DNA of 64,000 nucleotides. Origin: Syntrophobacterales bacterium. Lineage in GTDB: Bacteria > Desulfobacterota > Desulfobaccia > Desulfobaccales > 0-14-0-80-60-11. The stretch covers positions 645 through 64,644 of the forward strand of contig JAGVAH010000048.1 of the NCBI GenBank assembly GCA_020060385.1. The letters are read 5' to 3'. Position 1 is the stretch's first letter. Each line of letters starts with the position of its first letter. The notes below the pieces were generated by a model. That model was not told the DNA's origin, made no database searches, and was given only the letters and a program-made list of their open reading frames with translations. Shown piece by piece: positions 28,062 to 61,618 of this stretch. A program made the translations under genes and the position numbers.

Positions 28062-28072
28062 AAGGAGGGAAC

Positions 28073-28648: not shown

Positions 28649-28691
28649 GCCATTGCGGCCCTATAGACGCAGGCAGAAGAAGGAGATCTCC

Positions 28692-32889: not shown

Positions 32890-33107
32890 AAATTGCCGTT
32901 AGATTGCGACTTGGCATGATAAGATTAATCACCCGATCCACGGGTTGGGACCGTGAGCCTCGGCAGATGTCCTTGAACTTCCTGATCAGTTCCGGACCTT
33001 TCCTGAGTATGGGCGGGTAAGGCGGCCGCCACCCCCCGTTGAGGCTCCGCACTACTCATGGGAAAAAAAAATTACCGACCCGGGAACCCTTGCCCAGACA
33101 CGCAACC

Positions 33108-33833
33108 CTAATTCTTCTTCCTCAGGACGTAGATGACCCACGGCGCTATCGAGGTTTCGTTTAGCCAATCGTAGGGTTCATCTTCACGTCCGAGGGGTGT
33201 GTGATGCAGGACCAGATCGATTTCGCAGGTGGCAAATAGATGCAGGTAGTCTGCGTGCAACCAGAGAAGGTCCACCACGGGGCGCTGGTCCGCGACATCT
33301 TTCATCACGATCTTGACTGGGTCCCCACTTTGAGCATTATGGTTTTCCGGAAAATCCTTCGTCGTGAAAGATGCCCACTCGTGGGTGTAGATCTCGGGGG
33401 TCGAGCCCAGGATAATAATGTGCCCTGCACTATTCAGCAGGTCACGCAGACCACCTAAAAGCTCTCTGCGCTTGCCGACGCCGGGAATATTGTCAAACGT
33501 GAAGGCAGCCAGAACCAGGTCGAAGTGGCCGGGCTGGAACGAACTGAAATCCCCATCATCTATCAACCGATAGATGCCGCTTGGGTCGGCGTTCTGGGCC
33601 AGATCTATCATGCTGCTCGAAATGTCGATGCCAATTGCCTCAAAGCCAAGCCTTTTCAGAAACCTCGTAGAGCGTCCGGCCCCGCAACCGAAATCGAGAG
33701 CTACGCGTCCCTTGATGTGTTTGGCGATGATCCCGGGCAAGTCGCGGTACGCCAAATAGTAGGTGCCGGGGAACTCAAGAGTCGAATAAGCTTTCGCCCT
33801 CTGAGTGTCATCATAGACATTGAAAAATGACAT
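33108..33833 (-). CDS. Class I SAM-dependent methyltransferase
   Basis: ATG at 33833. The longer ORF-track start would overlap the kamA-like gene. Motif I VALDFGCGAGRSTRFL. Confidence 0.7.
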   Translation of the reverse strand: MSFFNVYDDTQRAKAYSTLEFPGTYYLAYRDLPGIIAKHIKGRVALDFGCGAGRSTRFLKRLGFEAIGIDISSSMIDLAQNADPSGIYRLIDDGDFSSFQPGHFDLVLAAFTFDNIPGVGKRRELLGGLRDLLNSAGHIIILGSTPEIYTHEWASFTTKDFPENHNAQSGDPVKIVMKDVADQRPVVDLLWLHADYLHLFATCEIDLVLHHTPLGREDEPYDWLNETSIAPWVIYVLRKKN

Positions 33834-33885
33834 GGTTTCTCCGCATCCCTTGACGCGCAAAGTGAAGGAGGTTCGATTGCAAAAA

Positions 33886-35316
33886 TCAGTGCAGCAAACA
33901 CTCGGTAACAGAGTAGCTGGGAAGGATCCGTTCACGATCCCCCTCGTCTGCAAACGGGAACCTTTCCCTGGCAAAGGCAGGCCGTAGCTGGTCAAACCAA
34001 GTGACATGGGGGTCCAATGCTGCGAAGAACACGGTCTTCACCAAGGCAGGATCCCGAGCCTGGGTGAAGTCGCAGATCAGGACCGGTTCATCCGCATGGA
34101 TCGCCGGGACACCCCCGTGGGCCCGGGAAAACGTTTCAATCATTCTGTCGTCCATTATGTCCCGTAGCGTGATCACGCCCATGATCCTCACTTTTCCGGG
34201 AAAAGCCGACATCGTCGGCCCTTGCACAGGCCGGGAAAGACCGGAGACGCTCGCATAAGCCTGCCTATATATCTCGTAGGCCCTTACGAGGGGGACCTCG
34301 AAGTAGTTTCTCGCGCCTGTGTCCCGTTCCACAAACATGTAGTAGGGGATAAGCCCCAGCCGGACTCCGGTTCGCCAGATAGAGGCCCAGACCTCGGGAT
34401 CGTCATTAACATGCCTGATGATCGGTGCCTGCATGCGGATTTGGGCGCCCGTATTGCGTATTCGCTGGATTGCCGCCCTCGCTATTTCAGGTTCGAGTTC
34501 CACTGGATGGGAGAAGTGGCCCATGATCGCCAAATGCCGATTGGCGGCGATTACCTCCTCAAAAAGTCTCAAGCAGTCGTCTGCATCTGGCTCCGAGACA
34601 AAGCGATAAGGCCAGGACGCGATGGCTTTTGTGCCGATGCGAATGTTCTGCACATGGTCTAGTTCGGGGATCAACAGGGGCTCTAGATATTTGCGCAGCA
34701 GTGTTGTCCGCATGATCATCGGGTCACCCCCGGTGATCAGCACATCCGTGACGTCTGGATGGGCCTTCAGATAGGCAACCAAGTCCACCGTGTCCTTGCT
34801 GGCAAACTTCACTCCTTCCATGTTAATAAACTGGGCCCAGCGGAAACAGTAGGTGCAGTAAGCATGGCACGACTGTCCATGGAAAGGGAAAAAGAGCACC
34901 GTTTCCCGATACTTGTGCTGCAGTCCCCAAAGAGGTCGCCCTTCGAATATAGGCACATTGTGAGTCAACTGCCCGGCCGGGTACGGATTCAAATCGAGCC
35001 GGATCCGCTGGATCACCCGGGCCAGGGAGTCTTGCGCATGGCCCTTGCGCAAGAGTGTCTCCACATCATGGTACTGCTCGGGGTCAAGCATTTCCCGTTG
35101 GGGGAACACAAGCTGGAAAACCGGATCGTTCGGCACCTTGGACCAGTCGATGAGGTTCTCCATGAGATAGCGGTTCGTTCGGAAGGGAAGAACTTGAGAT
35201 ACGACTTCCACAGCCGCCCGCAGATCGGGCTTCAGCCTCCTCCATTCGGGCGTTGCTGCCACGTTATGGATGCCAACCGCCTGATAGCGGATAGGTGTTG
35301 TCGCAGCTGGTTTCAA
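33886..35316 (-). CDS. KamA-family radical SAM aminomutase (lysine/glutamate 2,3-aminomutase-like)
   Basis: CHAYCTYCFRW (CxxxCxxC), GLQHKYRETVLF, ITGGDPM, and a C-terminal Lys-containing block (FPGKV). TTG start preceded by AAGGGAG. Confidence 0.8.
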   Translation of the reverse strand: MKPAATTPIRYQAVGIHNVAATPEWRRLKPDLRAAVEVVSQVLPFRTNRYLMENLIDWSKVPNDPVFQLVFPQREMLDPEQYHDVETLLRKGHAQDSLARVIQRIRLDLNPYPAGQLTHNVPIFEGRPLWGLQHKYRETVLFFPFHGQSCHAYCTYCFRWAQFINMEGVKFASKDTVDLVAYLKAHPDVTDVLITGGDPMIMRTTLLRKYLEPLLIPELDHVQNIRIGTKAIASWPYRFVSEPDADDCLRLFEEVIAANRHLAIMGHFSHPVELEPEIARAAIQRIRNTGAQIRMQAPIIRHVNDDPEVWASIWRTGVRLGLIPYYMFVERDTGARNYFEVPLVRAYEIYRQAYASVSGLSRPVQGPTMSAFPGKVRIMGVITLRDIMDDRMIETFSRAHGGVPAIHADEPVLICDFTQARDPALVKTVFFAALDPHVTWFDQLRPAFARERFPFADEGDRERILPSYSVTECLLH

Positions 35317-35367
35317 CCCGCTCCCTTTCCGGATGTCTCTCGAATTTCCGAATCACTCCGCCATGAG

Positions 35368-36141
35368 TCAGGACAGCCTCTGGCCGATAAACGCCGCGCC
35401 GATTGCGCCCCTGACTTGCGGATTGTCAGCCACAAAGACCTTCATTCCCAGCGCTTCCTCAAGCGCCCTGACCACGCCGCGGTTCAAGGCAACTCCTCCA
35501 CTCATTCCCAGAGGGCCGCTGATGCCCACAGTCCTGAGCAGCGAGATAGCCCGTGTGGCTATCGAGTTGTGGACCGCCTTGACGATATCCGGAATCGGCG
35601 TCCCCACGGCCACCAGTGACACCACCTCCGTCTCGGCAAACACCGTGCAGGTGCTGCTGATACGCACGGTGTTCTGGGAAAGCGCGGACACCTCCCCGAG
35701 GTCCGTAAGCTCCAGCCCCATAGCCTTCGCCGTAACCTCCAGAAATCTGCCGCAACCCGCGGCGCACTTGTCATTCATGGCGAAGGATTCCACATTCCCA
35801 GCCTCATCGATCCGAATAGCCTTGCTGTCCTGGCCGCCAATTTCCAGGATGGTTCTTATCTCCGGATTCAGGAGGTGCATCCCTATTGCATGGCAGGTAA
35901 TCTCGGAGATGTGTTTGTCGGCAAAGGGAACGTTCTCCCTCCCGTAGCCGGTGGTCACCACAAAGCCTATGTCATTGCGCGTCAGCCCTGCCTTGCCGAG
36001 CACATTCTCATAGGTCAATTCCGTGGCGGTCCGATTGCTGCCGCCGGTCAAAACGAGATCGAAGCCGATAACCTCCCAAGTCTCGTTCATGAGAGCAGCT
36101 TTTGTTGACAAAGAACCGACGTCAATACCTGCAGTGATCAC
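35368..36141 (-). CDS. BcrAD/BadFG-family ATPase: activator (archerase) of 2-hydroxyacyl-CoA dehydratase (HgdC/HadI/FldI type)
   Basis: MITAGIDVGSLSTKAALM (ASKHA phosphate-1). Bridging-cluster cysteines in CAAGCGRFLE and ISSTCTVFAE. GTG start after AAGGAGAG. Confidence 0.85.
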   Translation of the reverse strand: MITAGIDVGSLSTKAALMNETWEVIGFDLVLTGGSNRTATELTYENVLGKAGLTRNDIGFVVTTGYGRENVPFADKHISEITCHAIGMHLLNPEIRTILEIGGQDSKAIRIDEAGNVESFAMNDKCAAGCGRFLEVTAKAMGLELTDLGEVSALSQNTVRISSTCTVFAETEVVSLVAVGTPIPDIVKAVHNSIATRAISLLRTVGISGPLGMSGGVALNRGVVRALEEALGMKVFVADNPQVRGAIGAAFIGQRLS

Positions 36142-36164
36142 CTCACGACTCTCCTTCCTCAGGC

Positions 36165-37382
36165 TTATTGCATGAGTTCCAAGAACGCGTCGACGCGGTT
36201 CTTGATATGGTTGAACGTATAGTTGTTCCTATCAACCAGGTCGATATTGATGGTCAGATACTTCAGCTTCCTGCTCGCCGCCAGATCCCTGAGCATAGGG
36301 TTGATTCCCATCATGTTCCTGCATCCCCACACGTTCGAGATCACAAACCCCTCAATGCCAAACGTTTCGCACATCCGTAACGTGTCCACCCGCATCCTCT
36401 CGGCATTCCAATGGTAGAGTATCGCTCTATGGGCCATGCTCCGCAGCGGCTCGTCCTCATCGAGAACCAATGCGTTCGCCTCCCATAGTGGTGCCCAATA
36501 GACGATGTCGACCACGCGGTTCATATATTGCAGCAGTTCGTGGGACTCCTCCGGTGCTTGACCTATCCACATTACCCGCTTGCCTTTTTTCTCCTCGCCT
36601 TTTGCCAGCTCCAGGGCCTCCTCGAACAACACTTTGCATATCTGCGCATTCTGCTTGGCGCCGAAGTAATTCATCCCAAATATCTCATGCAGTTCTCGAG
36701 AGACTCCAGCAAGCTTGTGGGTTTCCAGAAGTCGAATAGTCTCCGAGAAGTATTCCCGCGCCTGGTTGGAGTGTTCTACCGCGGCGCGCAATGAATCCGG
36801 GGCGAGTTCCACCCCGAACTCACCTTCCAGCTGCGATATCAAATATTGCATCTGCTTGACGAGATACCTCAGGGAGTCTTCATCGATCGTATCCGGCGTA
36901 TGCAATGGCAAAATCGGCACGCTATAGCGCTTCCCTGATATATAAATCAGCTTCGACAGCCCCTCGCAGGGTTGGTTGTTGGTCAAGACGACGTTGGGGC
37001 GCGGATAGCAATTTGCCAGCATCATGCCGTAAGGTCCCCGCAGGAAAGAACATATGTCCCTCGATAGATTCTGCTCTTCGGTCAGTTGCAGGATCCGGTT
37101 CACATCCGCAGATTGGGCCAGCATGTTCGACATCGACTCAATGTTCCAAGGGATGGCCTCAAAGGCAAAGGCAATCTCTGTGGGAAATTGCTCGGAGACA
37201 TACGCCACCCGCGACCGCTCCTTATAAGCCTCCACCAGTCGATGACAGTTGACGATGGAACGCATCCGCGAGGCCCTGAGTTGGGGGCCGTCTATCTCGG
37301 CATCGGGGCGAAGATCGCCGATCAGCCTAAGAAGGTTCTGATACTGAACGCTGCGCCTCTGTCCGTTTCTCTCTTGTTCCAA
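36165..37382 (-). CDS. 2-hydroxyacyl-CoA dehydratase D-component subunit (HgdA/HadB/FldB-like)
   Basis: The HGD-D family architecture is recognisable (AYVSEQFPTEIAFAFEAIPWNI, DICSFLRG, VWGCRNMMG). It lies adjacent to the second subunit and the activator. TTG start after GAGGTGGA. Confidence 0.65.
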   Translation of the reverse strand: MEQERNGQRRSVQYQNLLRLIGDLRPDAEIDGPQLRASRMRSIVNCHRLVEAYKERSRVAYVSEQFPTEIAFAFEAIPWNIESMSNMLAQSADVNRILQLTEEQNLSRDICSFLRGPYGMMLANCYPRPNVVLTNNQPCEGLSKLIYISGKRYSVPILPLHTPDTIDEDSLRYLVKQMQYLISQLEGEFGVELAPDSLRAAVEHSNQAREYFSETIRLLETHKLAGVSRELHEIFGMNYFGAKQNAQICKVLFEEALELAKGEEKKGKRVMWIGQAPEESHELLQYMNRVVDIVYWAPLWEANALVLDEDEPLRSMAHRAILYHWNAERMRVDTLRMCETFGIEGFVISNVWGCRNMMGINPMLRDLAASRKLKYLTINIDLVDRNNYTFNHIKNRVDAFLELMQ

Positions 37383-37391
37383 GTGTCCACC

Positions 37392-38525
37392 TCAAAACAT
37401 CCGGGATTCCAGAAATGTCTGTATCCGGGTCCTGATGCTGGCAAGGTTCGTGACGTTGCGCTCCGATTCGATAGACAAGACCGGGATTTTCGCCTCCCGC
37501 AGTCGCTCCAATACATAAGGGTAGTCGTGCAGGTTTGTGTCGCAGAATTTAATGGAGTAATAGATGACCGAATCGACCTGGTACTCTTGCACCAGATCTA
37601 GGATGTGCTGAATTCTGACATCAATCTCCAGCCTGCGGGCGCTGGTATACTTCTCCAGATAGTAATCGGCGATGGCGGTGACGGGCTCCGCGTCCGGATC
37701 GATCTGTCCTTCGAAATACTTGACTCCGTTGCTGATGTCCTCGCAGACCAGAGCGGCGCCCCCATTCTCAATGGCGTCGATGATGCCCTGTTGATCGAAG
37801 TAACTGCCGCAGATCATCACCCGGTGACCCTTCCGGGGGGCGGGCGGCGGCTCCGCCGCCGCCAGCGCCTCGAGCAGCGCCGACATTTTCCTGTTGAAAT
37901 GCTCCTTCAATCCCGTGGTGGCAGCCTTGACCACCTGTATCGACTCCCCCCCGGTCAGAACCTGTCGTCCTCCCTTCTTGTACCGGTAGAGCCGTTGCAT
38001 GAGCGTCCTCGACCGGTTGCAGATGTCGATGGCCTCTCGCAGCGCCTCCTCGGAGATCTTGCGCCCATACCGGTGTTCCATTTCGGTGATCAACTTTCGC
38101 AGCCGCTGGGCGAAATACTCCTTGGAGATGGCGCTCACATAGCAAGGAAGATCCAGAAAATAGGTCGTCATGGACGGGATATCCCGGGTCCATGCCTCCC
38201 AGAGCTTCTTTCTCATGTCGCAGGCGTCGGCGAAGATGACCCCATCGGCGAAATCGTAGACGCCGGCCAGCCCTTCGCTAAAGCAACTCAGCAGGTAGGA
38301 ACAATAGTTATTGCCGAGACGGGCGCAGGCATCGGTGGCGCTCGACTCCAATTCGCCCGTGATTCGCAAAGGGATCAGGCCCGCGGCCAGGAAGATCTCC
38401 TCTGGTGTTTGGATCGACACCCAACCGATCTTCGGGCTGTCCGCCGCTTTCCAAAGATCGAAGCGGTTCCGGTACAGATCCACAATACCTCGGATCGCCT
38501 GCCGTATCGTGTCTTCCCCCCTCAT
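37392..38525 (-). CDS. 2-hydroxyacyl-CoA dehydratase D-component subunit (HgdB/HadC/FldC-like)
   Basis: True start ATG at 38525 (MRGEDTIRQ...), overlapping the NRPS stop as ATGA. Motifs KIGWVSIQTPEEIFLAAGLIPLRI, NYCSYLLSCF and YYSIKFCDTNLHDYP. Confidence 0.65.
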   Translation of the reverse strand: MRGEDTIRQAIRGIVDLYRNRFDLWKAADSPKIGWVSIQTPEEIFLAAGLIPLRITGELESSATDACARLGNNYCSYLLSCFSEGLAGVYDFADGVIFADACDMRKKLWEAWTRDIPSMTTYFLDLPCYVSAISKEYFAQRLRKLITEMEHRYGRKISEEALREAIDICNRSRTLMQRLYRYKKGGRQVLTGGESIQVVKAATTGLKEHFNRKMSALLEALAAAEPPPAPRKGHRVMICGSYFDQQGIIDAIENGGAALVCEDISNGVKYFEGQIDPDAEPVTAIADYYLEKYTSARRLEIDVRIQHILDLVQEYQVDSVIYYSIKFCDTNLHDYPYVLERLREAKIPVLSIESERNVTNLASIRTRIQTFLESRMF

Positions 38526-41500
38526 GCAACCTCCGGGGCCATTTCCACCGAGGTGAGAGGCCGGAATTGGCCCCACAGAGTCTCGGACAGGTAATGGGAA
38601 ATGCTCGATATCGTCGGCGCCATGGACACCAAGCAAACGCTCGGCGCGATGCCAAAGGCGCTGTTGATTTGGACCATCAGATTCGCCGCCCCCAAGGAGG
38701 TCAGGCCGAGATCGAAGAGGTTGGCCTCCATCCCTACGGGCCCTACGCCCAACAGCTCCTCGACCATCGATGCCACCTTCTTGGCGATGGCCGCTGGCGG
38801 CACCGCGATTTCCTCGCGGTCCGCCGGCCTCTCGGGCATCGGCAGCCACTCGTATTGCACTGGGCCCCCCGCTGCCCGCGGTATCATGCCCACCTGTATG
38901 TAGTTGTCCGGGATCATATAGCCCGGCAACCATCGCCCCAGATGCAGCTTCACCTCTTCCACGAATAACTGCGGCACCGCAGGTACGCCGCCCCCCAGAA
39001 CCAGGAAGGCGACGAGGCGCTCCCGGTGCTGGACCTCATCGTCGAAGACGACTACCGCGTCCTCGATGCCGGGGTGGGATCTGAGACGCCCCTCGATCTC
39101 GGCAAGGCTGACTCGGTGGCCATCGATGCTCACCTCGTCGGGGCGACCCGTCAACTCGATACGGCCGTCAGGGAGCCACCGGGCCCAAACCCCTGTCCGG
39201 TACATCCTGCTGCCGGCAGCATACGGATTCATGGTGAATCCAGGCGCGGTTTCGTCCCCGCGGTCCCAATACCCCCTGGCCAGGCCGGCGCCGCCCACGC
39301 ACAGCTCCCCCGTGACGCCGATGGGCAGTAGGCCGCCGTCGTGGCCGAGGATGTAGACTTCCGAGTTCGTTATCGGTTTGCCGATAATGCCCCCCGCACC
39401 ATCCCCATTCACGGGGCAGCAGGTCGTTACTTCCGTATTTTCCGCGTGACCAAAGCATTTAACGAATTCGTATGAGCCCTTGCGCGCAGGGCTAACGTTG
39501 CGTCCGGAGGTAATCAACACCCGGAGCGCGGTATTCTCTGCTGGGGCCAAGTGATGGCAAAGGGGAGCAGGCAACCAGGCAATGGTCACGCGGCTCTGCG
39601 CCAAATACTGGTCAAGCGACTTGGCGTCGCGCCCGGCGCCTTCGGTAAGGATGCCAATGGACGCGCCCGCGGCCAGGAACGGAAATACCTCAAAGATGGT
39701 GGCGTTCGCGGTAAGATCTCCGTACTTGGCGCTGCGATCGTCGGGACTCACCGCGAAGCGTTCGGTATGCCACCGGCAGCGGTCGAACAAGGACCTGTGC
39801 TCGATCATCACCCCTTTCCAGGCGCCTGTGGGCTTGGCAACATAACTCACGTAAGCTAGCCCTCCAGCGTCTCGGAGAGGCTCGAGGTTCGAGCCATTGG
39901 GGTCGTAGTTCTTCTCATCTCCCAGGTCCACGAATGGTGTGGTGAAAGGAGTTATTTCGGCGGCGGCATGGCCCAGGACGAGCCTGGCGCCGCTTGCCGC
40001 CAAAAGCCGCTCGATACGCGGCCAGGGATAGCCCTGGCTCAACGGCAGGTATGCGGCCCCCGTTTTTAAAACCGCGAGGAGCCCCATGATCATCTCGAAG
40101 GAGGGCCGCACCATGACGCCAACGATGTCCCCTGCTCCGATCCCCTGCCTGCGCAGATACCGCGCCAACTGGTTGGCGCGCCGGTTCAGCTCACCATACG
40201 TCATGCTCTTATCGTCTAAGACCAGGGCCACCCGGTCGGGAGACTGCTCCGCTTGCCCCTCGAAGGCCGAAACCACATTTTCGCCACCGGCGCGCTCCAC
40301 CACCCCGCCGTTGAACCCGCAGAGAATCCTCTCCTTTTCGGGCTTGGTCAGGACTTCAATCTGACCCAACTCCCTGCCCGGCTCTGTTATCACTTGTTTG
40401 AGAACCTGAAGGTAATTTGCAGCCAGGCGTTTGGCGGTGCTCCGCCGGAAGAGGTCGGTGTTGTATTCCATTTCGAACTCAAGCTTTCCGTCCGTCTCCA
40501 CCGCCCCCAAGGCCAAGTCGAACTTCGCTACCGGGTAGCCTACGTCCATCTCCCGGACGGTCAACCCGGGCATCTCCAGGGCGCTGAAGGATTGATCCTG
40601 CACGACAAACACCGTGTTGAAGAGAGGCTGGCCACCGCTTCTCAGCATGTGGCCCAGCATCATCCCCCACAGCTGGTACTCCTGGCATTCCAAGGCCCCG
40701 CGGACGGCCGTCCTCACCTGCGCCAGGTACTGGTCGAAACGGAGCCGGGACTGCGGCCGACTCCTGACCAGGTGCGTGCTCACGAACATACCCACCACCT
40801 TCTGGACCTCAGCGATGTACCTGCCGGCGGTGGGCACGGCGACGATTATGTCCTCCTGGCGGCTATATTTCGATAACAGCACCCCGTACGCCGCCAGGAG
40901 GGCCATGAACAGCGTTACCTCGTGCTCGGCACAGAAAGTCTTCAGTGCACTTTGCACCCATGGCTCCGTCTCGAAGGTAATCCTGGTGCCGGCAGACGAG
41001 AAGTTCTGGGGACGCGGAAAGTCCGTATCCAGTCGCGGCAAAGGAGGCGGGTCCTCGAGGACGCTCAGCCAGTATTTCTCCTTCTCGCGAAACGGTTCGC
41101 TCTGCAGATGCTCACCAATCCACTCCGCAAAATCCTTAAAGGTCACCCCGGGCTCCGGCAGCTCTTCGCCCGCATAGAGCGCGGCCATCTCCTCAAACAA
41201 GATCCCCATGGAGGTGCCGTCGCTTACCAGGTGGTGCATGTCCATCAACAGCACCTGGCGGCCGGGTCCCAGGGGCACCAGGGCCGCCCGCAGCAGCGGC
41301 GCCACTCCCAGATCAAAGGGGCGAATGAAATCGCGAGCCACTTCCTCGATCTCGTCTTCGCCGCATCCCTCCAGGACACTGATGGCGAAATCGACCCTGG
41401 GGCTCACCCATTGCCTGGGCTGACCGCCCACCGTCCTGAACGACGTCCTCAACGTCTCATGGCGATGGATCAGTTGCCGAAAGGCGTTTTCCAACCTGGG

Positions 41501-54244: not shown

Positions 54245-54413
54245 ATCCTCTCTCCTGACCGCCTGTCCGCCATGAGAATGCGTCATAAAAGTCCAAGGCA
54301 GACAACTTGGATGACGATCTGACAAACTGCTTAAGGTACCCTAGCGATTGGAGGAAAGTGGTCAAATCGCTGGCTTGCCGCCTGGTAGCCCAATGACCTC
54401 TTTCGACATGCTC

Positions 54414-55604
54414 TTAGATTCCGGAGCCTCGGGACGCCACCCGTGCCGCCGCTCCGGCAGGAGGAGCCGTCCGCCCCTTGATCAGCTCGTCGGCGATGAT
54501 CAGCCGTTGAATCTCCGATGTCCCGTCGCCGATCTCCGTCAGCTTCGCATCCCGGTAGAACCTCTCCAGGGGAAGATCCCGGGAATAACCATACGCCCCA
54601 TGGATCTGAATGGCGTCCCTGGTGACCGCGACCGCCATCTCCGAAGCAAAAAGTTTCGCCTCTGCAGCCTCTTTCAGGAAGCTCTTGCCCTGATCTCTCA
54701 ACCTCAGGCCCTTTCTCAGCAGCAAGTCTGCGGCGCTGATCCGCATTTCCATGTTGGCCAGCATGGCCTTCACCAGTTGAAAGCGATACAGTGGAGTCCC
54801 GAACTGCCTCCTTTGCACCACATAATCGAGGCACAGGTCGCGCGCTTCTTCGGAGATGCCGAGGGCAATGGCCGCCATATCCAACCGGGCAGCCGGCAGG
54901 GTGCGTTGCAAGACTTCGAAGCCCCTGTCCTGGCGGCCGATGAGGTTCTCCTTGGGCACTCGTACGTCCATGAAGACCAGTTCGCCGGTGTCGGAGGCCC
55001 GCATGCCGAGTTTCCGTTCCTTCCTGCCGGTCGCGGCAAAGCCGGGAGTTCCCTTCTCGACGACCAGGAGGCTCAGTCCCAGCAGTCCTGCCTGCGGTGA
55101 GGTCTTGGCCACGACCACGGCCAGGTCCGCCACGTTGGCATTGGTGATGAAAAGCTTCGAGCCATTGAGGAGATAATAGTCGCCCGCAGCCTCCGCGCGG
55201 GTCTGTATGGAGGCGATGTCCGAGCCGCTCCCCGCTTCGGTCATCGCGAAGGCGCCGATTTTTTCGCCACTGATCATCGGCTGTAGAAACTTGTCTTTGA
55301 GGTAGTCCGAACCCGCGGTGAATATGGGATCGCAGGTCAGGGTGGCATGCGATACCGCGGTCATGGCCGTGGCGGCGCAGACCTTCGCCACTTCCCGGAT
55401 GAGGGTCGCGTAGGCCGTGTAGTCCGTCTCCGCCCCGCCATACCGCTCCGGATATGGCGCCCCAAAGAGGCCGAACCTCCCCATTTCCCGGAAAGCCTGC
55501 AGCGGAAACTCCTCTCCCTCGTCCGCGTCGGCGGCGATCGGCGCAATCACCTTCCGGGCAAACTGACGCCCGCTGTCCTGAACGCTGCTGTCGTAATCAG
55601 TCAT
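54414..55604 (-). CDS. Acyl-CoA dehydrogenase family flavoprotein
   Basis: About 396 aa with family blocks GAFAMTEAGSGSD, YYLLNGSKLFITN and IHGAYGYSRDLPLERFYRDAKLTEIGDGTSEIQR. The start overlaps the AsnB-like stop (ATGA at 55601-55604). Confidence 0.85.
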   Translation of the reverse strand: MTDYDSSVQDSGRQFARKVIAPIAADADEGEEFPLQAFREMGRFGLFGAPYPERYGGAETDYTAYATLIREVAKVCAATAMTAVSHATLTCDPIFTAGSDYLKDKFLQPMISGEKIGAFAMTEAGSGSDIASIQTRAEAAGDYYLLNGSKLFITNANVADLAVVVAKTSPQAGLLGLSLLVVEKGTPGFAATGRKERKLGMRASDTGELVFMDVRVPKENLIGRQDRGFEVLQRTLPAARLDMAAIALGISEEARDLCLDYVVQRRQFGTPLYRFQLVKAMLANMEMRISAADLLLRKGLRLRDQGKSFLKEAAEAKLFASEMAVAVTRDAIQIHGAYGYSRDLPLERFYRDAKLTEIGDGTSEIQRLIIADELIKGRTAPPAGAAARVASRGSGI

Positions 55605-57382
55605 GACACCACCCCGAAAGCACTATGCCAGGAATCGAGAGAGATCAAGGCGTGCGAGGTCCTGTAGATGGCCAGATTATCAGTGGCCGCGAATTGGCCC
55701 CTCTTGCGGAAGAAATCATCCACCTTCCTTTTGTTGAAGTAGTGACCGATCCTGGAGCCCGCCGCCTGCACCAATTCGTTGGCTTGATTCCGTTCGTTGA
55801 AAACCGTTTTGGGATCGACGGGGATGGGGACGGGCCGTTTTTTCCTCTCGACCACAGGCGCGGGCAGCATGTCTGTCCCAATGCTCTTCAGAAGGACCTT
55901 TTCGGAGTCCGCCGTAGACTTATAGGCAGACGGCATGTCAATGACAAACTCCACCAAACGGTGATCCAGGAAGGGGACCCTCGACTCGACCCCCCAGGCC
56001 ATGCTGGTCTTGTCCAGACGCTCCAGCAGGTCCACGAGGTAGTACTTGAGAAAGAGATAGAGCAGCTTATTGGTACCGTCCCCGGTCTCCAACGCGACCA
56101 TCTCGCCGGCCAAAATGGCGCGCACCTTTTCCCTGTATCCGGTCTCCTTCTCGAGGTCCGGATGCAGCAGCCCGGAGACTTCCTCAAGATAGGGGGCCCA
56201 GGGGAATTCCTTTTGCCCCTCCGGATTACAGCGTTCGAGAAAGAAATAGTAGCCCGCAAACAACTCGTCCGCTCCCTCCCCCGACATCACCACCGTTACT
56301 TTCGGCTTTACTCCCCGATAGAGGAGAAACAGCGAGGGAGACGTTAATTCCACGGGCTTTTCCACATGCCAGGCGACTCTCCTCATGACCTCGAAGTATT
56401 CCTCCGGCTGAAAAATGAACTCCGTGTGGTCCGTACCATAGGCCTCCGCCACCAGACGGGCATAGTGCAGATCAGTATCATCCGGCCTCTGCGTCCTGTT
56501 CTTGTGGTAGCCCATGGAGAAGGTTTTTAGGCGCCCGCCGATATGCTTGGTGGCCATTGCCGACACCAGACTCGAGTCCAGCCCCCCGCTCAGGAGCGTC
56601 CCCAACGGTACGTCGCTCACAGATTCCATCTTGATGGCCGAATTCAAGAGGCATTGGACCTCCTCCCGGCAGTCCCCGAAGGAGTTGCCGTTGTGCCGGA
56701 CCCCGTCACGTTCCAGGGCCCAGTATCGATGGCTGGTGACGGCCCCGTTCTCGATAACGATCGTCGTGCCGGGCGGCACGGACCGGATGCCCTTGAACAT
56801 CGTTTTGGAATCCAGGAGCGTTGTGCAGAGGAGATATTCAGGGATGGCATGGATATCCACCTCGGCCCGCATTTGGGGATGCTTTAGAATGGCCTTGATC
56901 TCCGAGGCGAAGATGAATAACGAGCCGGTAATTGCATAATAGAGAGGCTTGATACCCAAGCGGTCCCTCGCCAGGAAGAGAAGCTCCTTTTCCTCGTCCC
57001 ACAGCGCAAAGGCGAACATGCCGTTGAATTTTGAGACGCACTTCCAGCCGTACTCCTCGTACCCGTGCACGATGACTTCGGTATCGGCATCGGTGGCGAA
57101 GCGGTGGCCAGTGCGCAATAGCTCCTGTCTCAATTCCTTGTAGTTGTAAATTTCACCGTTGTAAGTGACCCATACCCTACCGTCTTCGTTGCTCATCGGC
57201 TGCCTGCCCCCGGCAAGATCGATCACCGAGAGCCTGCGGTGTCCAAAGCCGAGGAAGCGGTCAATGTATGCGCCCCAATCGTCCGGGCCGCGATGAGCAA
57301 GCATTGCCGTCATCTTAAGCAGCACGGCTTCCGAAACGGGTGCGTTCTTCTGCATGTCGAAGACCCCGCAAATCCCGCACAT
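55601..57382 (-). CDS. Asparagine-synthetase-family (Ntn glutaminase + PP-loop synthetase) amidotransferase
   Basis: MCGICGVF (Cys2 nucleophile), HRGPDD, YNGEIYN, LSGGLDSS. It is a divergent paralogue of 15473-17434, about 40% identical by eye over the N-terminal domain. Confidence 0.85.
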   Translation of the reverse strand: MCGICGVFDMQKNAPVSEAVLLKMTAMLAHRGPDDWGAYIDRFLGFGHRRLSVIDLAGGRQPMSNEDGRVWVTYNGEIYNYKELRQELLRTGHRFATDADTEVIVHGYEEYGWKCVSKFNGMFAFALWDEEKELLFLARDRLGIKPLYYAITGSLFIFASEIKAILKHPQMRAEVDIHAIPEYLLCTTLLDSKTMFKGIRSVPPGTTIVIENGAVTSHRYWALERDGVRHNGNSFGDCREEVQCLLNSAIKMESVSDVPLGTLLSGGLDSSLVSAMATKHIGGRLKTFSMGYHKNRTQRPDDTDLHYARLVAEAYGTDHTEFIFQPEEYFEVMRRVAWHVEKPVELTSPSLFLLYRGVKPKVTVVMSGEGADELFAGYYFFLERCNPEGQKEFPWAPYLEEVSGLLHPDLEKETGYREKVRAILAGEMVALETGDGTNKLLYLFLKYYLVDLLERLDKTSMAWGVESRVPFLDHRLVEFVIDMPSAYKSTADSEKVLLKSIGTDMLPAPVVERKKRPVPIPVDPKTVFNERNQANELVQAAGSRIGHYFNKRKVDDFFRKRGQFAATDNLAIYRTSHALISLDSWHSAFGVVS

Positions 57383-57385
57383 CTT

Positions 57386-58420
57386 CTACCGTCCCCCCCA
57401 TTGCGCGCCGCCCGCTGCGCCCAGGAGATCCCTCTCGACCTGGGCCGCGATGGCCATCCCCTTGCCGTCATGGTCTGCCAACCTCTCCAAAGCCGCGTCC
57501 CTGCTAATTAAACCCTGGCGAACCAACTGGCCCATTTCGTACTCGTAGGGATGGAATTGGTGGAGGTTCTGATGCTTGACAATGCCGAAGGCATTCAACC
57601 GGCAATTGGTGGAGTTTGGATCGACGTCCTTTGGTTTTGACCAGCCAAGCCCGGCTATGGTCCTGTAAATCTTCGTTTCGTCATAGCCAAGGACCGGCAG
57701 GGGACTGACGACGTAGGGGAAGGGCCGCGTCCGGTGTTCCTCCGCGGTCAGCATCAGGTAGTCGTAAACCCAAGGCCCCGTTCTGTCAGCCAATTTATCG
57801 AAAAGCTGCCGCCTAAGGGCATAGGGAATTCTGTTGTCCTGATATATGAGTTCGTCCGGGGATCGCATAACCTGCCCCGGACTGTTGCCCAGCATGACCA
57901 TGGGCACCTGCTTTTCAATGGCTGTGCGCAGAGCGGCGGTCATGACCATGCGGATACAGGAAATGCAGACACCGCTGCCGAACTTTGTCAGATGCTCGGG
58001 ATAAAGGGGGGATTGCCCGCTGGCCAGAAAAATTTCGTTCAAGCGATCCTGGCGATATCTGATGATAATATGGTCTACGTTCAACCGCGCCGTGACTATC
58101 CGCAGGTTGGCTGAGCACGCCTCCGAGAGGAAGCCATTGTCGAAAGTCACGGCCAGCAGCCGCAAATGATACTTCTCCTGAAGCAGGTGGAGCAGGAAGG
58201 TGCTGTCTTTCCCGCCGCTGCAGGACACCACGGCGTCGTACCGCGGCCCTTTCGATTTGGAGGCGTCGATGATCTTCGACAAAATACCGCCAAAGTCCCG
58301 GGGCGAGGCCACCGTCTTTTGCCGTTCGCTGAACTCCTGGCAGATCGAGCAGACGCCATCCTCTCCGAATATGATTCCCGGAAAGTGCGGGCCCAGGACG
58401 CATTTGGTGCAACGCTTCAT
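57386..58420 (-). CDS. PP-loop (adenine nucleotide alpha-hydrolase) ATPase with an N-terminal Cys4 ribbon, WbpG / N-acetyl-sugar-amidotransferase-like
   Basis: CTKC...CSIC zinc-ribbon-like N-terminus and the PP-loop VSCSGGKDST. The start overlaps the ligase stop (ATGA at 58417-58420). Confidence 0.65.
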   Translation of the reverse strand: MKRCTKCVLGPHFPGIIFGEDGVCSICQEFSERQKTVASPRDFGGILSKIIDASKSKGPRYDAVVSCSGGKDSTFLLHLLQEKYHLRLLAVTFDNGFLSEACSANLRIVTARLNVDHIIIRYRQDRLNEIFLASGQSPLYPEHLTKFGSGVCISCIRMVMTAALRTAIEKQVPMVMLGNSPGQVMRSPDELIYQDNRIPYALRRQLFDKLADRTGPWVYDYLMLTAEEHRTRPFPYVVSPLPVLGYDETKIYRTIAGLGWSKPKDVDPNSTNCRLNAFGIVKHQNLHQFHPYEYEMGQLVRQGLISRDAALERLADHDGKGMAIAAQVERDLLGAAGGAQWGGR

Positions 58421-59952
58421 ATTCTCTTCGCCATCGATAACTCGGCACGATCCAGCTTGCCCGTGCCCGTGGTGGGCATCTCCACACGAAAGGTGATCTC
58501 GTCGGGCATCATGTAGTGGGGCAGAAGGCGCTTACAGTGACCGGCTACCTCCTCTGCCGCGAGGTCCGCGCCCTGGCTTCGAACCAGTATGGCATGTATG
58601 CGGGGACCGCTATCCGTCTCCGGCGTACAGACCACCGCCGCCATGGCCACGCCGTCCAGGCGTTCCAGGCAGGCCTCGATCTCTTCTGGATATACCTGGT
58701 ACCCCAGACGCTTGATCATGTTGTCTTTGCGGCCGACGAAATATAAATAGCCCTCCTCGTCCAACATGCCCAGGTCACCGGTGTGCACGCCGTCTTCCCG
58801 GAAGGTCTCGCCGCCGTTGCGTTTCCAGTAGCCAGGGGAGATAAACGCTCCCCGGTGCACAATCTCCCCCACTTCCCCCGGTGCCCGCGGCTTTCCTGCC
58901 GCATCGACGATGACTATTTCCACCCCCGGTAGAGGCTTTCCCACCGACCCGGGCTTCCTGTGGAAATCGGCGGGAACGAGACAGGTGGAGCGGAACGCTT
59001 CCGTGGTCCCATACATCATGAAGAAGTCCGTATTTTTGAGGATGCCCTTCAGTCTTGCCAGATACCCTTCCGGAAAGACCTCGCCAATCAGCGATAGATA
59101 GCGCAGGTGCGGGAACTCGCAGTCCGCCAAAGCCGGGTAGCGCGCCAGCATCATGCGCCAGAACGACGGGACTGCATGGAATCCGGTGATCTTCTCCGTG
59201 AGAAGGGTAGTCACCACGTCCTTGGGAAAGTGCGAGTCCTGCAGGACCAGCGCGCCGCCGACGAGGACCGCGGTAAATAGCTGGCTCAGGGCGCCGTCAA
59301 AGGAAAACGGCGTCAAACTGATAAGCCGGTCCGTGGAGACGTTCTCGAGCACTTGCGCCGAAACCAGCGTGGACGCGGACAGAATCCCATGCGTCACCAT
59401 GATGCCCTTGGCCCTCGCAGTCGTTCCCGAGGTATAGATAATCGCGGCGAGATCTTCCTCATGGGGGGGTGGGTAGGAGGCCGACTGGGCCCTGCCACTT
59501 GAGCCCCCCAGAGCAGTATCCAGTCTGAGAGTGGAAGCCGGGTGGCCTCGGCTGGTCTCCGGTCCCATGGCGATCAGCAGGCTCGGCAGGATGCCTTTTT
59601 CTCCGGCTCGTTCGATGGCCGCGCCTTTGCTTTCGTGAAAAAAAAGAGCGGCAGGTTGACATTCTTCAATTACGTGGCCTAGCTTGTCGTCCCGGAAGGA
59701 GGGATTGAGGTGGACCATAACCCCGCCGGCCTTTGCTATGGCAAAAATCACCACTACCTCATCGGCGCACTTCGGCGCAAAGACCCCCACCCGCATACCC
59801 TTTTCCACGCCCTTGGAGCGCAGGAAGGCCGCAAGCCGCGACGATCTTTCATCCAGATCCGCAAACGACAGCCGTTGCCCTCGAAAGGCGATCGCCTCTT
59901 TGTCGGGGCGGTCCCGGGCACTCCTGCGCAGCATTTCAGGAACTGGCAGCAT
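58417..59952 (-). CDS. Stand-alone adenylate-forming enzyme (ANL superfamily acyl/aminoacyl ligase)
   Basis: IIYTSGTTARAKGIMVTHG (P-loop), MMYGTTEAF, HTGDLG, GRKDNMIKRLGYQVYPEEIE, and the catalytic Lys in TGTGKLDR. Confidence 0.85.
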   Translation of the reverse strand: MLPVPEMLRRSARDRPDKEAIAFRGQRLSFADLDERSSRLAAFLRSKGVEKGMRVGVFAPKCADEVVVIFAIAKAGGVMVHLNPSFRDDKLGHVIEECQPAALFFHESKGAAIERAGEKGILPSLLIAMGPETSRGHPASTLRLDTALGGSSGRAQSASYPPPHEEDLAAIIYTSGTTARAKGIMVTHGILSASTLVSAQVLENVSTDRLISLTPFSFDGALSQLFTAVLVGGALVLQDSHFPKDVVTTLLTEKITGFHAVPSFWRMMLARYPALADCEFPHLRYLSLIGEVFPEGYLARLKGILKNTDFFMMYGTTEAFRSTCLVPADFHRKPGSVGKPLPGVEIVIVDAAGKPRAPGEVGEIVHRGAFISPGYWKRNGGETFREDGVHTGDLGMLDEEGYLYFVGRKDNMIKRLGYQVYPEEIEACLERLDGVAMAAVVCTPETDSGPRIHAILVRSQGADLAAEEVAGHCKRLLPHYMMPDEITFRVEMPTTGTGKLDRAELSMAKRI

Positions 59953-60205
59953 CGCTTCTACCTGTAGTCTTTTGCTCCTGCTTGGTGATGATCAAGCTGA
60001 CCAGTCCATCGACTGTGCCGAAACTGGCCATGTCGATGTCATCCCCGCTGATCTCCAGATGGAATGTCTCCTCGATGAAGACCACCAGTGACAAAACGTC
60101 CAACGACGTCAGCAGCCCGCGTTCGAACAGGTTGATCGAATGGTCGAAGCCTCTCTCATTGGAGATTCCTTCGATATAACCGACGATCATGTCTCGTATG
60201 CTCAT
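59936..60205 (-). CDS. Free-standing acyl/peptidyl carrier protein
   Basis: 89 aa from ATG 60205. LFERGLLTSLDVLSLVVFIEETF has the carrier-protein helix II pattern with the Ser attachment site (DltC/ACP-like). It overlaps the ligase start by 17 nt. Confidence 0.65.
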   Translation of the reverse strand: MSIRDMIVGYIEGISNERGFDHSINLFERGLLTSLDVLSLVVFIEETFHLEISGDDIDMASFGTVDGLVSLIITKQEQKTTGRSDAASS

Positions 60206-60366
60206 ATGATACTTCCCTGGTGCAAGGTTCGAGGGGGAGCATGGCGCGCACTTCACCTCTTTTTCGCAGGCCAACAACTATTATGGCCTGGGAAAAAATC
60301 TCCGTTCGTCAACCGGACTTCTTCTCTGCTCTGACGCGCGTCGAAGCTTCGGGCTGCCGGCTCTAG

Positions 60367-60765
60367 CTAAGGCGCCGTGGGAGCATCGGGGACGACTTGC
60401 ACCCATGTGCCTAGAGCAGCGACCAAAGAAGCCGGCACGGCAATACGCCGCTCCAGGACTGCATTGCTTTTGAGCTTGATCAGTACTAGTCGGGGGCCCG
60501 CTTTCTCTGCAGCTTCGGTTGTTTCCCCTTTTTTCTCGGCAACTTCTTCGGATTGCGCGGGGACAAGGTCGCTAATGTCGATCACATCTCCAGCCGCAAT
60601 CTCGTACTGGGCGCCATTAATGTCGATACAGCAAAGCTCTTTGGTGGTGGTTAGAATCGTGGCGGCGATAATCACCTCGCCCGTTGGATTCCCGTAAAGT
60701 ATTTCACCACGGAGTGAACTTTCCTCTGGGTTCTGAAAACCGGCGATAAATTGCTCGAAGTTCAT
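60367..60765 (-). CDS. Hypothetical 132-aa protein (no recognisable family)
   Basis: ATG 60765 is preceded by a strong SD (GAGGAGG, 5-nt spacer). Two small predicted beta-rich segments are joined by an acidic E/A/K linker. Lies between the PPTase gene and the carrier-protein gene. Confidence 0.5.
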   Translation of the reverse strand: MNFEQFIAGFQNPEESSLRGEILYGNPTGEVIIAATILTTTKELCCIDINGAQYEIAAGDVIDISDLVPAQSEEVAEKKGETTEAAEKAGPRLVLIKLKSNAVLERRIAVPASLVAALGTWVQVVPDAPTAP

Positions 60766-60859
60766 ATTTCCTCCTCATATTAATTAGTTACATCGACTGC
60801 CATCTTCTGCTGCTCCATAATCCAGGGTAAATAGCAAATTAGAGGGATCAAGAAGTCTT

Positions 60860-61618
60860 TCACCAGTCAGCCAGCAAGAAACCTGCGGCGGCGACTTTCT
60901 TAAGTGGTACCGCGACTGTCCCCACAACATCATCGAGCGGCTCTAAGTGGATGAGGCTCCAGTCCCGAAAAGGTATTAAGGCAGGCTCCCCGGAGACTAG
61001 CCTTGCTGGCTTGTCAGCACTGAGCGTCACCTCAAACGAGTGGAGCGGCATTGTAAGTCCGCAGCCCAAGGCTTTGATAACGGCCTCCTTCCTGGTCCAG
61101 CACCGAAAGAAGGCCTTGTACGCTTCCGTCTCGGGTAGTGCCGTTAGCTTAGCGTATTCCTGTTTAGTGAAGTATCTCTTGGCAATATCTAAAAAATCCG
61201 GAAGGGGACGAACCGTTTCGACATCGGCTCCCACACTTAATTGGGATGTCACCGCGACCAACGCCAAGCGTTCGCAGTGCGACAGGTTGAACTCTAGCTG
61301 GGAAGACCTCAGATGGTCCGCGATTCTGGGTTTGCCTTGAACTCCATAGGTGAACTCAATTGCCGCTGCACCTACCCCTAGGTAGCGCGCCAAAACCCGG
61401 CGCAAAAAAGCATGACTCCGAATAAATCGCCACCGGTCGGCAGCGAAAACAAAACTGCAGGCTCTTTGCACCTCTGTTTCTGAGAGGGAGGAAATGAGAT
61501 GGGAACTTTCTCTTGCATCCAGGCGCATAGCCCAAACGTGGGCACAACCAGGGTGAACCTCTTTGGGTAAAGCCATATTCCAAGTGAACTCGCGGAAAAT
61601 AGCCGTATCGCCGATCAT
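60860..61618 (-). CDS. Sfp-type 4'-phosphopantetheinyl transferase
   Basis: HVWAMRLD, FVFAADRWRFIRSHAFLRRVLARYLG, FNLSHCERLALVAV, VGADVE, FFRCWTRKEAVIKALG. Start at ATG 61618 (TTG 61702 possible). Confidence 0.8.
   Translation of the reverse strand: MIGDTAIFREFTWNMALPKEVHPGCAHVWAMRLDARESSHLISSLSETEVQRACSFVFAADRWRFIRSHAFLRRVLARYLGVGAAAIEFTYGVQGKPRIADHLRSSQLEFNLSHCERLALVAVTSQLSVGADVETVRPLPDFLDIAKRYFTKQEYAKLTALPETEAYKAFFRCWTRKEAVIKALGCGLTMPLHSFEVTLSADKPARLVSGEPALIPFRDWSLIHLEPLDDVVGTVAVPLKKVAAAGFLLADW

Follow-up and report, generated by a model that had tools for sequence, protein, structure and literature searches.

A compact nonribosomal peptide synthetase operon encoding a predicted thioamide synthetase and a putative ketyl-radical enzyme, with relatives in several bacterial phyla

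What might a nonribosomal peptide synthetase (NRPS) do in the company of enzymes best known from the fermentation of amino acids? The question is raised by a 64,000-nucleotide stretch of DNA from a Syntrophobacterales bacterium (contig JAGVAH010000048.1 of assembly GCA_020060385.1, positions 645 to 64,644), called the window below, in which 15 consecutive open reading frames (ORFs) of the minus strand fill positions 33108-61702. ORF translations and Pfam and NCBIfam assignments on these 15 genes bear out the list, families and order proposed in an earlier sequence-only reading: a 4'-phosphopantetheinyl transferase (PPTase) and a small ORF, then a carrier protein, a ligase, a PP-loop ATPase, an AsnB-type amidotransferase, an acyl-CoA dehydrogenase (ACAD), three NRPS proteins (NRPS-A, NRPS-B and NRPS-C), two HGD-D subunits (HgdA and HgdB) with an HgdC-type activase, a KamA-like aminomutase and a methyltransferase. 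These gene assignments, together with the joint conservation of the genes across phyla, support the central claim of that reading, a compact NRPS operon with an unusual, oxygen-sensitive anaerobic tailoring set. The explanation that we favour as a whole, at slightly better than an even chance, is a functional biosynthetic operon of a horizontally spread family, in which CtaC-type and 2-hydroxyacyl-CoA dehydratase/benzoyl-CoA reductase (HAD/BCR)-like chemistry would take place on carrier-bound intermediates. The product would most likely be a short peptide, capped at its N terminus and thioamidated, whose synthesis involves a ketyl-radical enzyme driven by ATP.

How firmly are these genes held together? 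All six stop/start overlaps that had been described are present: ATGA at 58417-58420, 55601-55604 and 38522-38525, TTGA at 51020-51023, and overlaps of 17 nucleotides (nt) at 59936-59952 and 47811-47827. The remaining short junctions are spacers of 3, 9, 23, 51 and 52 nt, and bigger gaps measure 127 nt (ACAD to NRPS-A), 161 nt and 94 nt. The overlap at 47811-47827 hinges on the start of NRPS-C: the JGI gene caller began this gene at ATG 47773, which hides the conserved overlap (window 47773-47893), but we favour ATG 47827, with AAGGAGG upstream, because Blastochloris viridis shows the identical 17-nt overlap at this start. As operons often show such overlaps, these are not beyond chance by themselves; that distant genomes keep them weighs more. 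Seven genomes from two phyla share the ATGA overlap that joins the last NRPS gene to hgdA. A single transcript with stoichiometric co-translation, which the overlaps had been taken to indicate, would be plausible. Scans for promoter and terminator motifs gave no excess over the shuffled expectation, and Rfam returned no match within the window. A terminator-like hairpin with a T-rich tail lies at 33078-33099 (minus strand), 9 nt past the stop of the methyltransferase gene; it fits the end of an operon and is only suggestive.

Does the set also hold together in other organisms? We retrieved 79 database homologues of the first HGD-D subunit, HgdA. Every sampled relative with at least 44% identity and enough flanking sequence adjoins NRPS genes and has a second HGD-D gene, and an activase gene is present in all but one of these loci, which is truncated by its contig. 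The whole operon recurs in the same order in B. viridis (CP012946.1, about 3.167-3.198 Mb), the biosynthetic genes being 56-78% identical and the PPTase and small ORF 30-36%, with a class-III aminotransferase in place of the methyltransferase. Its distal half, which begins with the last NRPS gene, was found in Rhodopseudomonas palustris BisB18 (NC_007925.1, around 2.24-2.26 Mb), R. rhenobacensis, Bradyrhizobium jicamae, a Rhodospirillales metagenome-assembled genome (MAG) and Acidobacteriota MAGs; the sequence fetched for these carriers covered just this half. Variants occur in several Paenibacillus species (including P. elgii, P. ehimensis and P. durus), in Paramaledivibacter, in a Spirochaetales MAG and in Desulfobacter vibrioformis, those of Paenibacillus and the Spirochaetales MAG including reduced forms. 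The firmicute and spirochaete versions are without the 476-residue KamA-like gene and have, between the CtaC-like gene and asnB, a gene for a KamA-family radical S-adenosylmethionine (SAM) protein of 606-621 residues. The conserved core consists of the carrier protein, ligase, CtaC-like protein, KamA-family protein, AsnB, ACAD, HGD-D pair and activase, usually the methyltransferase, and one or more NRPS modules whose adenylation domain is of the Cys or Cys-like type.

Could an NRPS operon nonetheless lie by chance beside genes that are used independently in anaerobic amino-acid fermentation? HADs, their activases, KamA and ACADs are classic fermentation enzymes, and the spacers of 51-52 nt before the KamA-like and methyltransferase genes would suit such an adjacency. 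Yet NRPS genes accompany this set in Alphaproteobacteria, Acidobacteriota, Bacillota, Spirochaetota and Desulfobacterota alike, all inspected loci of close HGD-D and PP-loop homologues are clusters of this type, the overlaps are conserved, and in B. viridis transposase and relaxase genes border the cluster. Chance adjacency, already contradicted by these comparative data, therefore strikes us as scarcely credible. The sequence-only reading had allowed that the enzyme genes might turn out to be conserved without the NRPS genes in relatives; instead, the two are conserved together across phyla. As far as sequence comparison can establish them, the identities of the genes and their co-inheritance are firm. 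Horizontal transfer of the cluster family fits these data, since the closest relatives of the cluster are in other phyla. On either side of the B. viridis cluster lie genes for insertion sequence transposases, a MobA/MobL relaxase, TraD, TraI-like proteins and a ParDE toxin-antitoxin pair (our locus records L007, 1-6158, and L003, 16784-20972), and the cluster appears to sit on a mobile island.

What would the assembly line build? NRPS-A (51020..54286, module 1), NRPS-B (47811..51023, module 2) and NRPS-C (38522..47827, modules 3-5) form a colinear, modular type I NRPS with five condensation (C) domains bearing HHxxxD[GA], four intact adenylation (A) domains, one degenerate A domain (A*) and five carrier (T) domains, arranged as C-A-T in each of the first two proteins and as C-A-T-C-A-T-C-A*-T in the third. 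Specificity codes were extracted with a GrsA reference sequence, which gave back DAWTIAAICK as a self-check. The code of module 1, DVTFFALIYK, is conserved in the family; it has no assignment and resembles Cys codes. Those of modules 2 to 4, DAFFIGAVFK, DLTKIGEVGK and DAWFLGNVVK, read as Ile/Val-like, Asn and Leu codes respectively.

The A* label that module 5 had received proves to be deserved. This domain (38798..40330, approximate borders) is a dead A domain in which every core motif is broken (YVAKPTGAWKG, KCFGHAENT, YRTGVW, GRPD-EVSIDG and GGPVQ); its code, NAFWISCEVP, is without Asp235 and Lys517, and its TIGR01733 score of 289 bits falls below the cut-off of 317. It is degenerate likewise in all alphaproteobacterial and acidobacterial homologues. 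The terminal carrier domain T5 (38558..38770), the third PP-binding match of NRPS-C, has a GLTSL motif with its Ser at residue 3044, and this Ser is conserved in eight family members. With A* dead and the Ser conserved, T5 must, judging from these residues, be loaded in trans. NRPS modules that have no A domain and are loaded in trans are known, for example the third peptidyl carrier protein domain (PCP3) of HMWP1 in yersiniabactin biosynthesis. Like them, the C-A*-T module of the window and its C-T counterpart in Paenibacillus have a conserved carrier Ser and no working A domain; unlike them, the branch to which the window belongs retains the dead domain instead of deleting it. In P. ehimensis the terminal module is cut down to C-T and is followed by a thioesterase (TE) gene, and the sole NRPS of the Spirochaetales MAG is a C-A(Cys)-T-C protein. 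We considered a tie between HgdABC and terminal modules without an A domain, and rejected it because the last A domain is active in several relatives.

How the chain would leave the enzyme is less apparent. Pfam found no epimerisation, TE or reductase domain across the operon, and motif scans of its genes found neither a dual epimerisation/condensation motif nor an MbtH motif, in agreement with the absences reported from the sequence alone. No dedicated release function (TE, reductase or terminal C domain) is present in the window, and a TE gene accompanies the cluster only in the Paenibacillus and Paramaledivibacter relatives.

What kind of enzyme is the PP-loop ATPase (57386..58420)? It has a zinc ribbon, an SGGKDS motif and a CxxC...C triad, and an alignment of 20 homologues shows C4, C7, C24, C27, S68-G-G-K-D72-S73, C152, C155 and C273 to be invariant. 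CtaC, the thioamide synthetase of closthioamide biosynthesis, has a zinc site, the PP-loop residues D77/S78 and the Fe-S ligands C154/C157/C284; D77/S78, C154/C157 and C284 were all mutated, and the mutagenesis shows that the Fe-S ligands matter (PMC6772006). The spacing of C152/C155/C273 in the window protein is similar to that of the CtaC ligands. We compared the two proteins through peptide fragments of CtaC decoded from the published mutagenesis primers: these fragments read LSGGKDS, QLCFFCGR and SSGCKLG, and the window protein has CSGGKDS, GVCISCIR and STNCRLN at the matching positions. It is 61% identical to WP_055038179.1 of B. viridis and 56% identical to WP_042207049.1 of P. durus. 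Both of these proteins stand among the top 100 CtaC homologues, with cluster type 'NRPS', in the survey of Dunbar et al. (2019, PMC6772006, Table S5). The family named in the sequence-only reading thus stands, and the Cys triad and, indirectly, the orthologues in the CtaC list refine it to a CtaC-type enzyme, presumably with an Fe-S cluster. Thioamide formation is the most likely chemistry for this enzyme, and we judge it somewhat more probable than not.

The main rival chemistry inserts no sulfur at all. An O-adenylated amide could instead react with ammonia to an amidine, as in WbuX/PseA-like enzymes, or lose water to a nitrile, as in QueC-like ones, with AsnB providing the amide or the ammonia; a glutamine amidotransferase gene does lie only 3 nt downstream of the PP-loop gene, and some PP-loop homologues give weak QueC matches in Pfam. 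In sequence as well as in fold, the nearest solved structure is 8wex, an N-acetyl sugar amidotransferase of the WbuX type (TM score 0.62), followed among fold neighbours by NcsA, TtuA, YcfA and LarE, which are Fe-S or sulfur-inserting PP-loop enzymes. The best NCBIfam match is the WbuX model TIGR03573, over residues 1-320, but its 113 bits are far under the cut-off of 203, and 8wex has no cysteines where the window family has its invariant CxxC. The operon encodes no HisH/HisF-like proteins, and its context is one of NRPS rather than of sugar or exopolysaccharide genes. With a Cys triad that mirrors the Fe-S ligands of CtaC in kind and spacing, and with orthologues among the closest database homologues of CtaC, we consider amidine or nitrile formation unlikely.

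If thioamide formation is retained, the closest known system is closthioamide biosynthesis (cta, Ruminiclostridium cellulolyticum), and it is so through CtaC only. Both loci encode an Fe-S PP-loop ATPase beside a small carrier protein and a ligase of the ANL superfamily of adenylate-forming enzymes, and the predicted chemistry they share is a carrier-dependent exchange of O for S. CtaC acts on carrier-bound substrates only, and closthioamide is made without NRPS modules, by the ATP-grasp protein CtaD and the papain-like and transglutaminase-like ligases CtaG and CtaJ (PMC6772006). Pfam and NCBIfam detect no ATP-grasp, papain-like or transglutaminase-like domain in any gene of our operon. Conversely, the operon has a five-module NRPS together with AsnB, ACAD, HAD/BCR-like, KamA-like and methyltransferase genes, none of which is named among the cta functions (PMC6772006).

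Genes that could prepare a starter unit lie around the PP-loop gene. The stand-alone carrier protein (59936..60205) has its Ser in the motif LLTSLD, scores 20.5 bits with PP-binding against a cut-off of 20.8, gives weak matches to DltC and acyl carrier proteins, and has a 78% identical orthologue in B. viridis. Its gene shares 17 nt with that of a stand-alone ANL ligase of the A-domain type (58417..59952; AMP-binding and AMP-binding_C), which keeps an A-domain-like FSFDG motif. The pocket code of the ligase is DGSASIM--K in four of the five members compared and DGSATIM--K in P. tepidiphilus. This near-invariance, across four phyla, argues for one conserved starter unit, and the unit loaded by the ligase is probably the same throughout the cluster family. 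AsnB (55601..57382) reaches 502 bits with TIGR01536 (cut-off 267) and has the N-terminal Cys nucleophile (MCGICG) and the synthetase PP-loop (SGGLDS) of a glutamine-dependent amidotransferase. We rejected the idea that it is a mere supplier of asparagine for module 3, as the Spirochaetales cluster, with a Cys code in its only A domain, keeps it too. That one-module cluster keeps the carrier protein, ligase, CtaC-like protein, KamA-family radical SAM protein, AsnB, ACAD, HGD-D and methyltransferase genes; these enzymes therefore build a conserved core and do not serve to supply Asn. The ACAD, an acyl-CoA or acyl-carrier dehydrogenase (54414..55604), has three ACAD domains and matches AcrC best in NCBIfam, with 391 bits, below the cut-off.

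Comparable starter cassettes are known, namely the ligase, carrier and ACAD of lipoinitiation in friulimicin (LipA/LipB/LipD) and the ligase with AsnB-type amidation in dapdiamide (DdaG/DdaH). The window resembles them in that a ligase, a discrete carrier, an ACAD and an AsnB precede an NRPS whose first domain is a C domain. It differs from them in that its ligase looks like an amino-acid A domain rather than a fatty-acyl ligase, and in that its cassette also includes an enzyme of the CtaC type and, throughout the family, one of the KamA type.

Is the KamA-like protein a lysine enzyme, as its name would have it? The protein (33886..35316) belongs to the KamA family of radical-SAM, pyridoxal phosphate (PLP)-dependent 2,3-aminomutases, with 130 bits for TIGR00238, below the cut-off. 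Aligned with lysine 2,3-aminomutase (LAM; 2A5H), it keeps C125/C129/C132, the carboxylate-binding R134 and the PLP-binding K337. Of the designation 'KamA aminomutase', the catalytic residues of the family are therefore confirmed and the lysine specificity is not, both lysine-binding aspartates being replaced (D293 by R331, D330 by T368) and TIGR03820 giving 107 bits against a cut-off of 525. KamA and the related Eam thus have in common with the window protein the CxxxCxxC motif, the carboxylate-binding Arg and the PLP-binding Lys, whereas the window protein is without the lysine-binding aspartates, lies below all NCBIfam cut-offs and is about 60 residues longer than KamA. In the divergent firmicute subfamily, the position of LAM D293 is taken by Lys, so that a basic residue, Arg or Lys, stands there in both subfamilies. 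Glutamate 2,3-aminomutase also has a basic residue at this position. An acidic substrate such as glutamate is our leading guess.

The HGD-D and activase genes lie downstream of the NRPS genes. HgdA (37392..38525), whose ATGA overlap ties it to NRPS-C, is an HGD-D subunit (PF06050) of the BzdN/HadC (beta) type; HgdB (36165..37382) is a divergent one of the HadB (alpha) type, also matching PF06050, with only weak matches in the PDB (HadB, 1.3e-4) and 48 bits in the HadB model of NCBIfam, whose cut-off is 750. Each subunit has three or four conserved cysteines. The third gene (35368..36141) encodes an HgdC-type ATP-dependent activase, or archerase, with 250 bits for TIGR00241, above the cut-off, and the Cys motifs DKCAAGCG and STCTVFAE.

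Are we then dealing with a dehydratase? In the PDB, HgdA is closer to BzdN (2e-43) than to HadC (1.5e-31), and the NCBIfam models rank them alike, with 155 bits for BzdN (cut-off 454) and 144 for HadC (cut-off 700). The 'dehydratase' label of the sequence-only reading is therefore not established, no equivalog cut-off being reached. A benzoyl-CoA-reductase-like enzyme could dearomatise an aryl thioester, the ligase having loaded a benzoyl or hydroxybenzoyl starter as CtaI loads 4-hydroxybenzoate in closthioamide, and the ACAD would then adjust the ring; the requirement of CtaC for an aryl-capped substrate (PMC6772006) would agree with this. But the ranking that favours BzdN is itself unreliable, as the highest score among these sub-threshold HGD-D matches goes to the double-cubane model, with 185 bits. 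Class I benzoyl-CoA reductases have two different ATPase subunits of the BcrA/BcrD type, and here there is a single activase gene, which passes the dehydratase-activase model. BzdNOPQ (PDB 8s02) does provide, in BzdN, the best solved-structure sequence match of HgdA; the window differs from it in having one ATPase gene instead of two, a second subunit without convincing similarity to BzdO or BcrB, and no context of aromatic degradation, and its ligase carries the A-domain-like FSFDG rather than aryl-acid signatures. We consider dearomatisation quite improbable.

The layout of two HGD-D subunits beside one homodimer-type activase is that of the dehydratases, and a single activase gene with HgdC-type Cys motifs fits a dehydratase architecture rather than a four-subunit reductase. 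The 2-hydroxyacyl-CoA dehydratases HadBC/HadI, HgdAB/HgdC and FldBC/FldI likewise consist of two HGD-D subunits next to one BcrAD_BadFG activase, and the window activase keeps the bridging-cluster cysteine motifs of their activators. Unlike the genes for these known enzymes, those of the window are embedded in an NRPS operon that they overlap, and they are not accompanied by a CoA-transferase or a 2-hydroxyacid dehydrogenase. Given the translational coupling of hgdA with the gene for NRPS-C, and with a CoA-transferase missing, we place the action of HgdAB on a carrier-bound thioester, which is probably the substrate of the enzyme.

Some relatives carry further HGD-D genes. In CBDUYN010000010.1, the closest MAG relative (HgdA 73% identical), no stop codon separates the last NRPS ORF from hgdA (locus L009, 9500-11131), and the reading frame continues from one to the other through an Ala/Arg/Pro-rich stretch with an internal ribosome-binding site and ATG. 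This may be a natural NRPS-HGD-D fusion or a read-through artefact; the Ala/Arg-rich linker and the internal start make a true fusion uncertain, and we did not use it as evidence. The same cluster has two extra HGD-D genes. A clostridial locus, that of Paramaledivibacter caminithermalis (FRAG01000038.1; L005/L018), contains in this order NRPS, TE, activase, three HGD-D, MatE, electron-transfer flavoprotein (ETF) alpha and beta, class-III aminotransferase and PPTase genes, so that a third HGD-D paralogue occurs in some members of the family.

The most serious rival to carrier-bound chemistry is a precursor route at the CoA level, as in the reductive branch of amino-acid (Stickland-like) fermentation. 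HgdAB, the activase and the ACAD would then work off-line, converting an amino acid through the 2-oxo acid, 2-hydroxyacyl-CoA and enoyl-CoA to an acyl-CoA, and would supply an unusual acyl or enoyl starter for the ligase to load. To our knowledge, all characterised HADs use CoA esters; the best match of the ACAD, AcrC, is an acryloyl-CoA reductase; and several related clusters have genes for ETF alpha and beta (P. durus, P. tepidiphilus and Paramaledivibacter) or for a class-III aminotransferase (B. viridis, Rhodopseudomonas, L009 and Paramaledivibacter). The window cluster has neither ETF nor aminotransferase genes, however, and no CoA-transferase, second CoA ligase or 2-hydroxyacid dehydrogenase gene is present in the window or in any related locus inspected. 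The sole ligase gene overlaps that of the carrier protein, and in those seven genomes the start of hgdA overlaps the stop of the last NRPS gene. We therefore hold the off-line route to be rather unlikely, though of the alternatives the one to be taken most seriously.

How might the carrier-bound pathway run? The order of its steps, the substrates and the action of HgdAB on a carrier are what we infer from the gene set. The aminomutase would make a beta-amino acid, probably an acidic one, with beta-glutamate as the leading guess, and the ligase would load this unit onto the free carrier protein. There, AsnB could amidate its free carboxylate, the CtaC-type enzyme could convert the amide into a thioamide, and the ACAD could desaturate the chain. 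The first C domain would hand this cap to the NRPS, which would add a Cys-like residue, Ile/Val, Asn and Leu, and the terminal C-A*-T module would take up the unit loaded in trans on T5. With a low-potential electron supplied by the activase at the expense of ATP, the HAD/BCR-like enzyme would form a ketyl radical on a carrier-bound thioester and eliminate or reduce an alpha-substituent. The methyltransferase would act late and finish the product.

Several observations weigh against this scheme. The ligase pocket is without the basic residue expected for an acidic substrate, which weakens the beta-glutamate guess. Both in structure and in NCBIfam, the PP-loop enzyme has as its closest neighbour an N-acetyl sugar amidotransferase, which forms an amidine. 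Both HGD-D subunits lie under every equivalog cut-off and the alpha-type one is very divergent, so that the reaction type is not fixed by similarity. The ETF and class-III aminotransferase genes of the relatives would also fit a CoA-level, Stickland-like precursor pathway. Finally, the window version has neither a release domain nor an exporter, and some relatives keep an active last A domain. That an archerase-activated ketyl-radical enzyme works on an NRPS carrier thioester, possibly that of the trans-loaded last T domain, and that a CtaC-type thioamide is formed in the same pathway, is a combination we advance tentatively, as well short of an even chance.

The remaining genes of the operon are consistent with an NRPS pathway or stand apart from it. 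The methyltransferase, the last gene (33108..33833), is a class I SAM enzyme (Methyltransf_11/12/25) with orthologues 58-70% identical in the clusters of Acidobacteriota, B. jicamae, the Spirochaetales MAG and Paenibacillus. At the other end, an Sfp/HetI-type PPTase (60860..61618, its ORF being open to 61702) matches ACPS and AASDHPPT_N in Pfam and HetI in NCBIfam (185 bits, below the cut-off), and provides the Sfp-type PPTase expected of an NRPS cluster; the JGI caller shortened it to a 124-residue ACPS domain starting at 61234. Between the PPTase and the carrier protein, orf132 (60367..60765), preceded by a strong GAGGAGG ribosome-binding site, encodes a conserved small protein without a family: it has no Pfam or NCBIfam family, relaxed Pfam thresholds gave noise only, and an AlphaFold2 model from the single sequence was discarded at a predicted local distance difference test (pLDDT) score of 37. 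An ORF 36% identical to it occupies the same position in B. viridis.

What kind of organism harbours the operon? On the plus strand, 23861-32348 begins with a sigma-54 activator gene (23861-25261) and continues with a set typical of electron-bifurcating or Hdr/Mvh-like complexes: a NuoF-like protein (26034-28061, though probably starting further downstream and then 636 residues long), an 845-residue protein that contains an MvhD/FlpD domain (28578-31115) and an Fe-S protein resembling FrhB/FdhB (31221-32348). At 86-92% identity, the NuoF-like protein matches proteins of Desulfobacca acetoxidans and of Deltaproteobacteria and Desulfobacterales MAGs, and this, with the neighbouring anaerobic gene set, argues for a Desulfobacca-like host, probably an anaerobic sulfate reducer. 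The window also matches the JGI metagenome contigs Ga0104751_1000719 and Ga0104761_1000199. Further upstream, glycosyltransferase (GT) genes at 17469-20162 on the plus strand (GT1/GT4, and a GT4 of the WecA/MraY-like kind) point to the first third of the window as an exopolysaccharide or cell-envelope locus. Two large plus-strand ORFs at 20222-23365, of 597 and 403 residues, have no Pfam family and lie in a stretch whose G+C content drops to about 0.50, against about 0.60 elsewhere.

How much of this was known? The HAD, BCR, KamA, AsnB and ACAD families are each known individually. The sequence-only reading knew of no characterised cluster with this combination of enzymes, and the searchable literature likewise yielded no characterised cluster with the same gene set and no product of the cluster family. 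The loci as such had been listed, though: NRPS clusters with a CtaC homologue, including those of B. viridis, R. palustris and P. durus, were catalogued in 2019 as candidate clusters for thioamidated nonribosomal peptides, at a time when closthioamide was the only known bacterial nonribosomal peptide containing a thioamide (PMC6772006, Table S5). Thioamide-mining studies found in the literature after 2019 are either centred on ribosomally synthesised and post-translationally modified peptides or unrelated. Within the searchable literature there is no report of an HAD/BCR-type enzyme in an NRPS pathway, and such radical enzymes appear there only in catabolism. That reading had also seen the operon as an instance of NRPS pathways in strict anaerobes. 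This holds for the host, which is probably an anaerobe, and not for the family as a whole, which, to judge by the genomes that carry it, is not confined to strict anaerobes and occurs as well in genera not known as such, among them Paenibacillus, Bradyrhizobium and phototrophic Alphaproteobacteria.

The strict and conserved coupling of HAD/BCR-type genes to NRPS genes points to a new, carrier-protein-based radical chemistry. If our explanation is true, thiotemplated assembly lines would gain their first known ATP-driven low-potential radical step. The recruitment of a CtaC-type enzyme by a canonical NRPS would show how backbone or side-chain thioamides can be installed on ordinary assembly lines, and the product would be the first thioamidated peptide traced to a canonical NRPS. 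The one-module Spirochaetales version defines a minimal enzyme set for this family, and the presence of the operon in sequenced, cultivable strains (B. viridis, R. palustris BisB18, P. elgii, P. ehimensis and P. durus) makes it experimentally tractable, so that its product can be sought.

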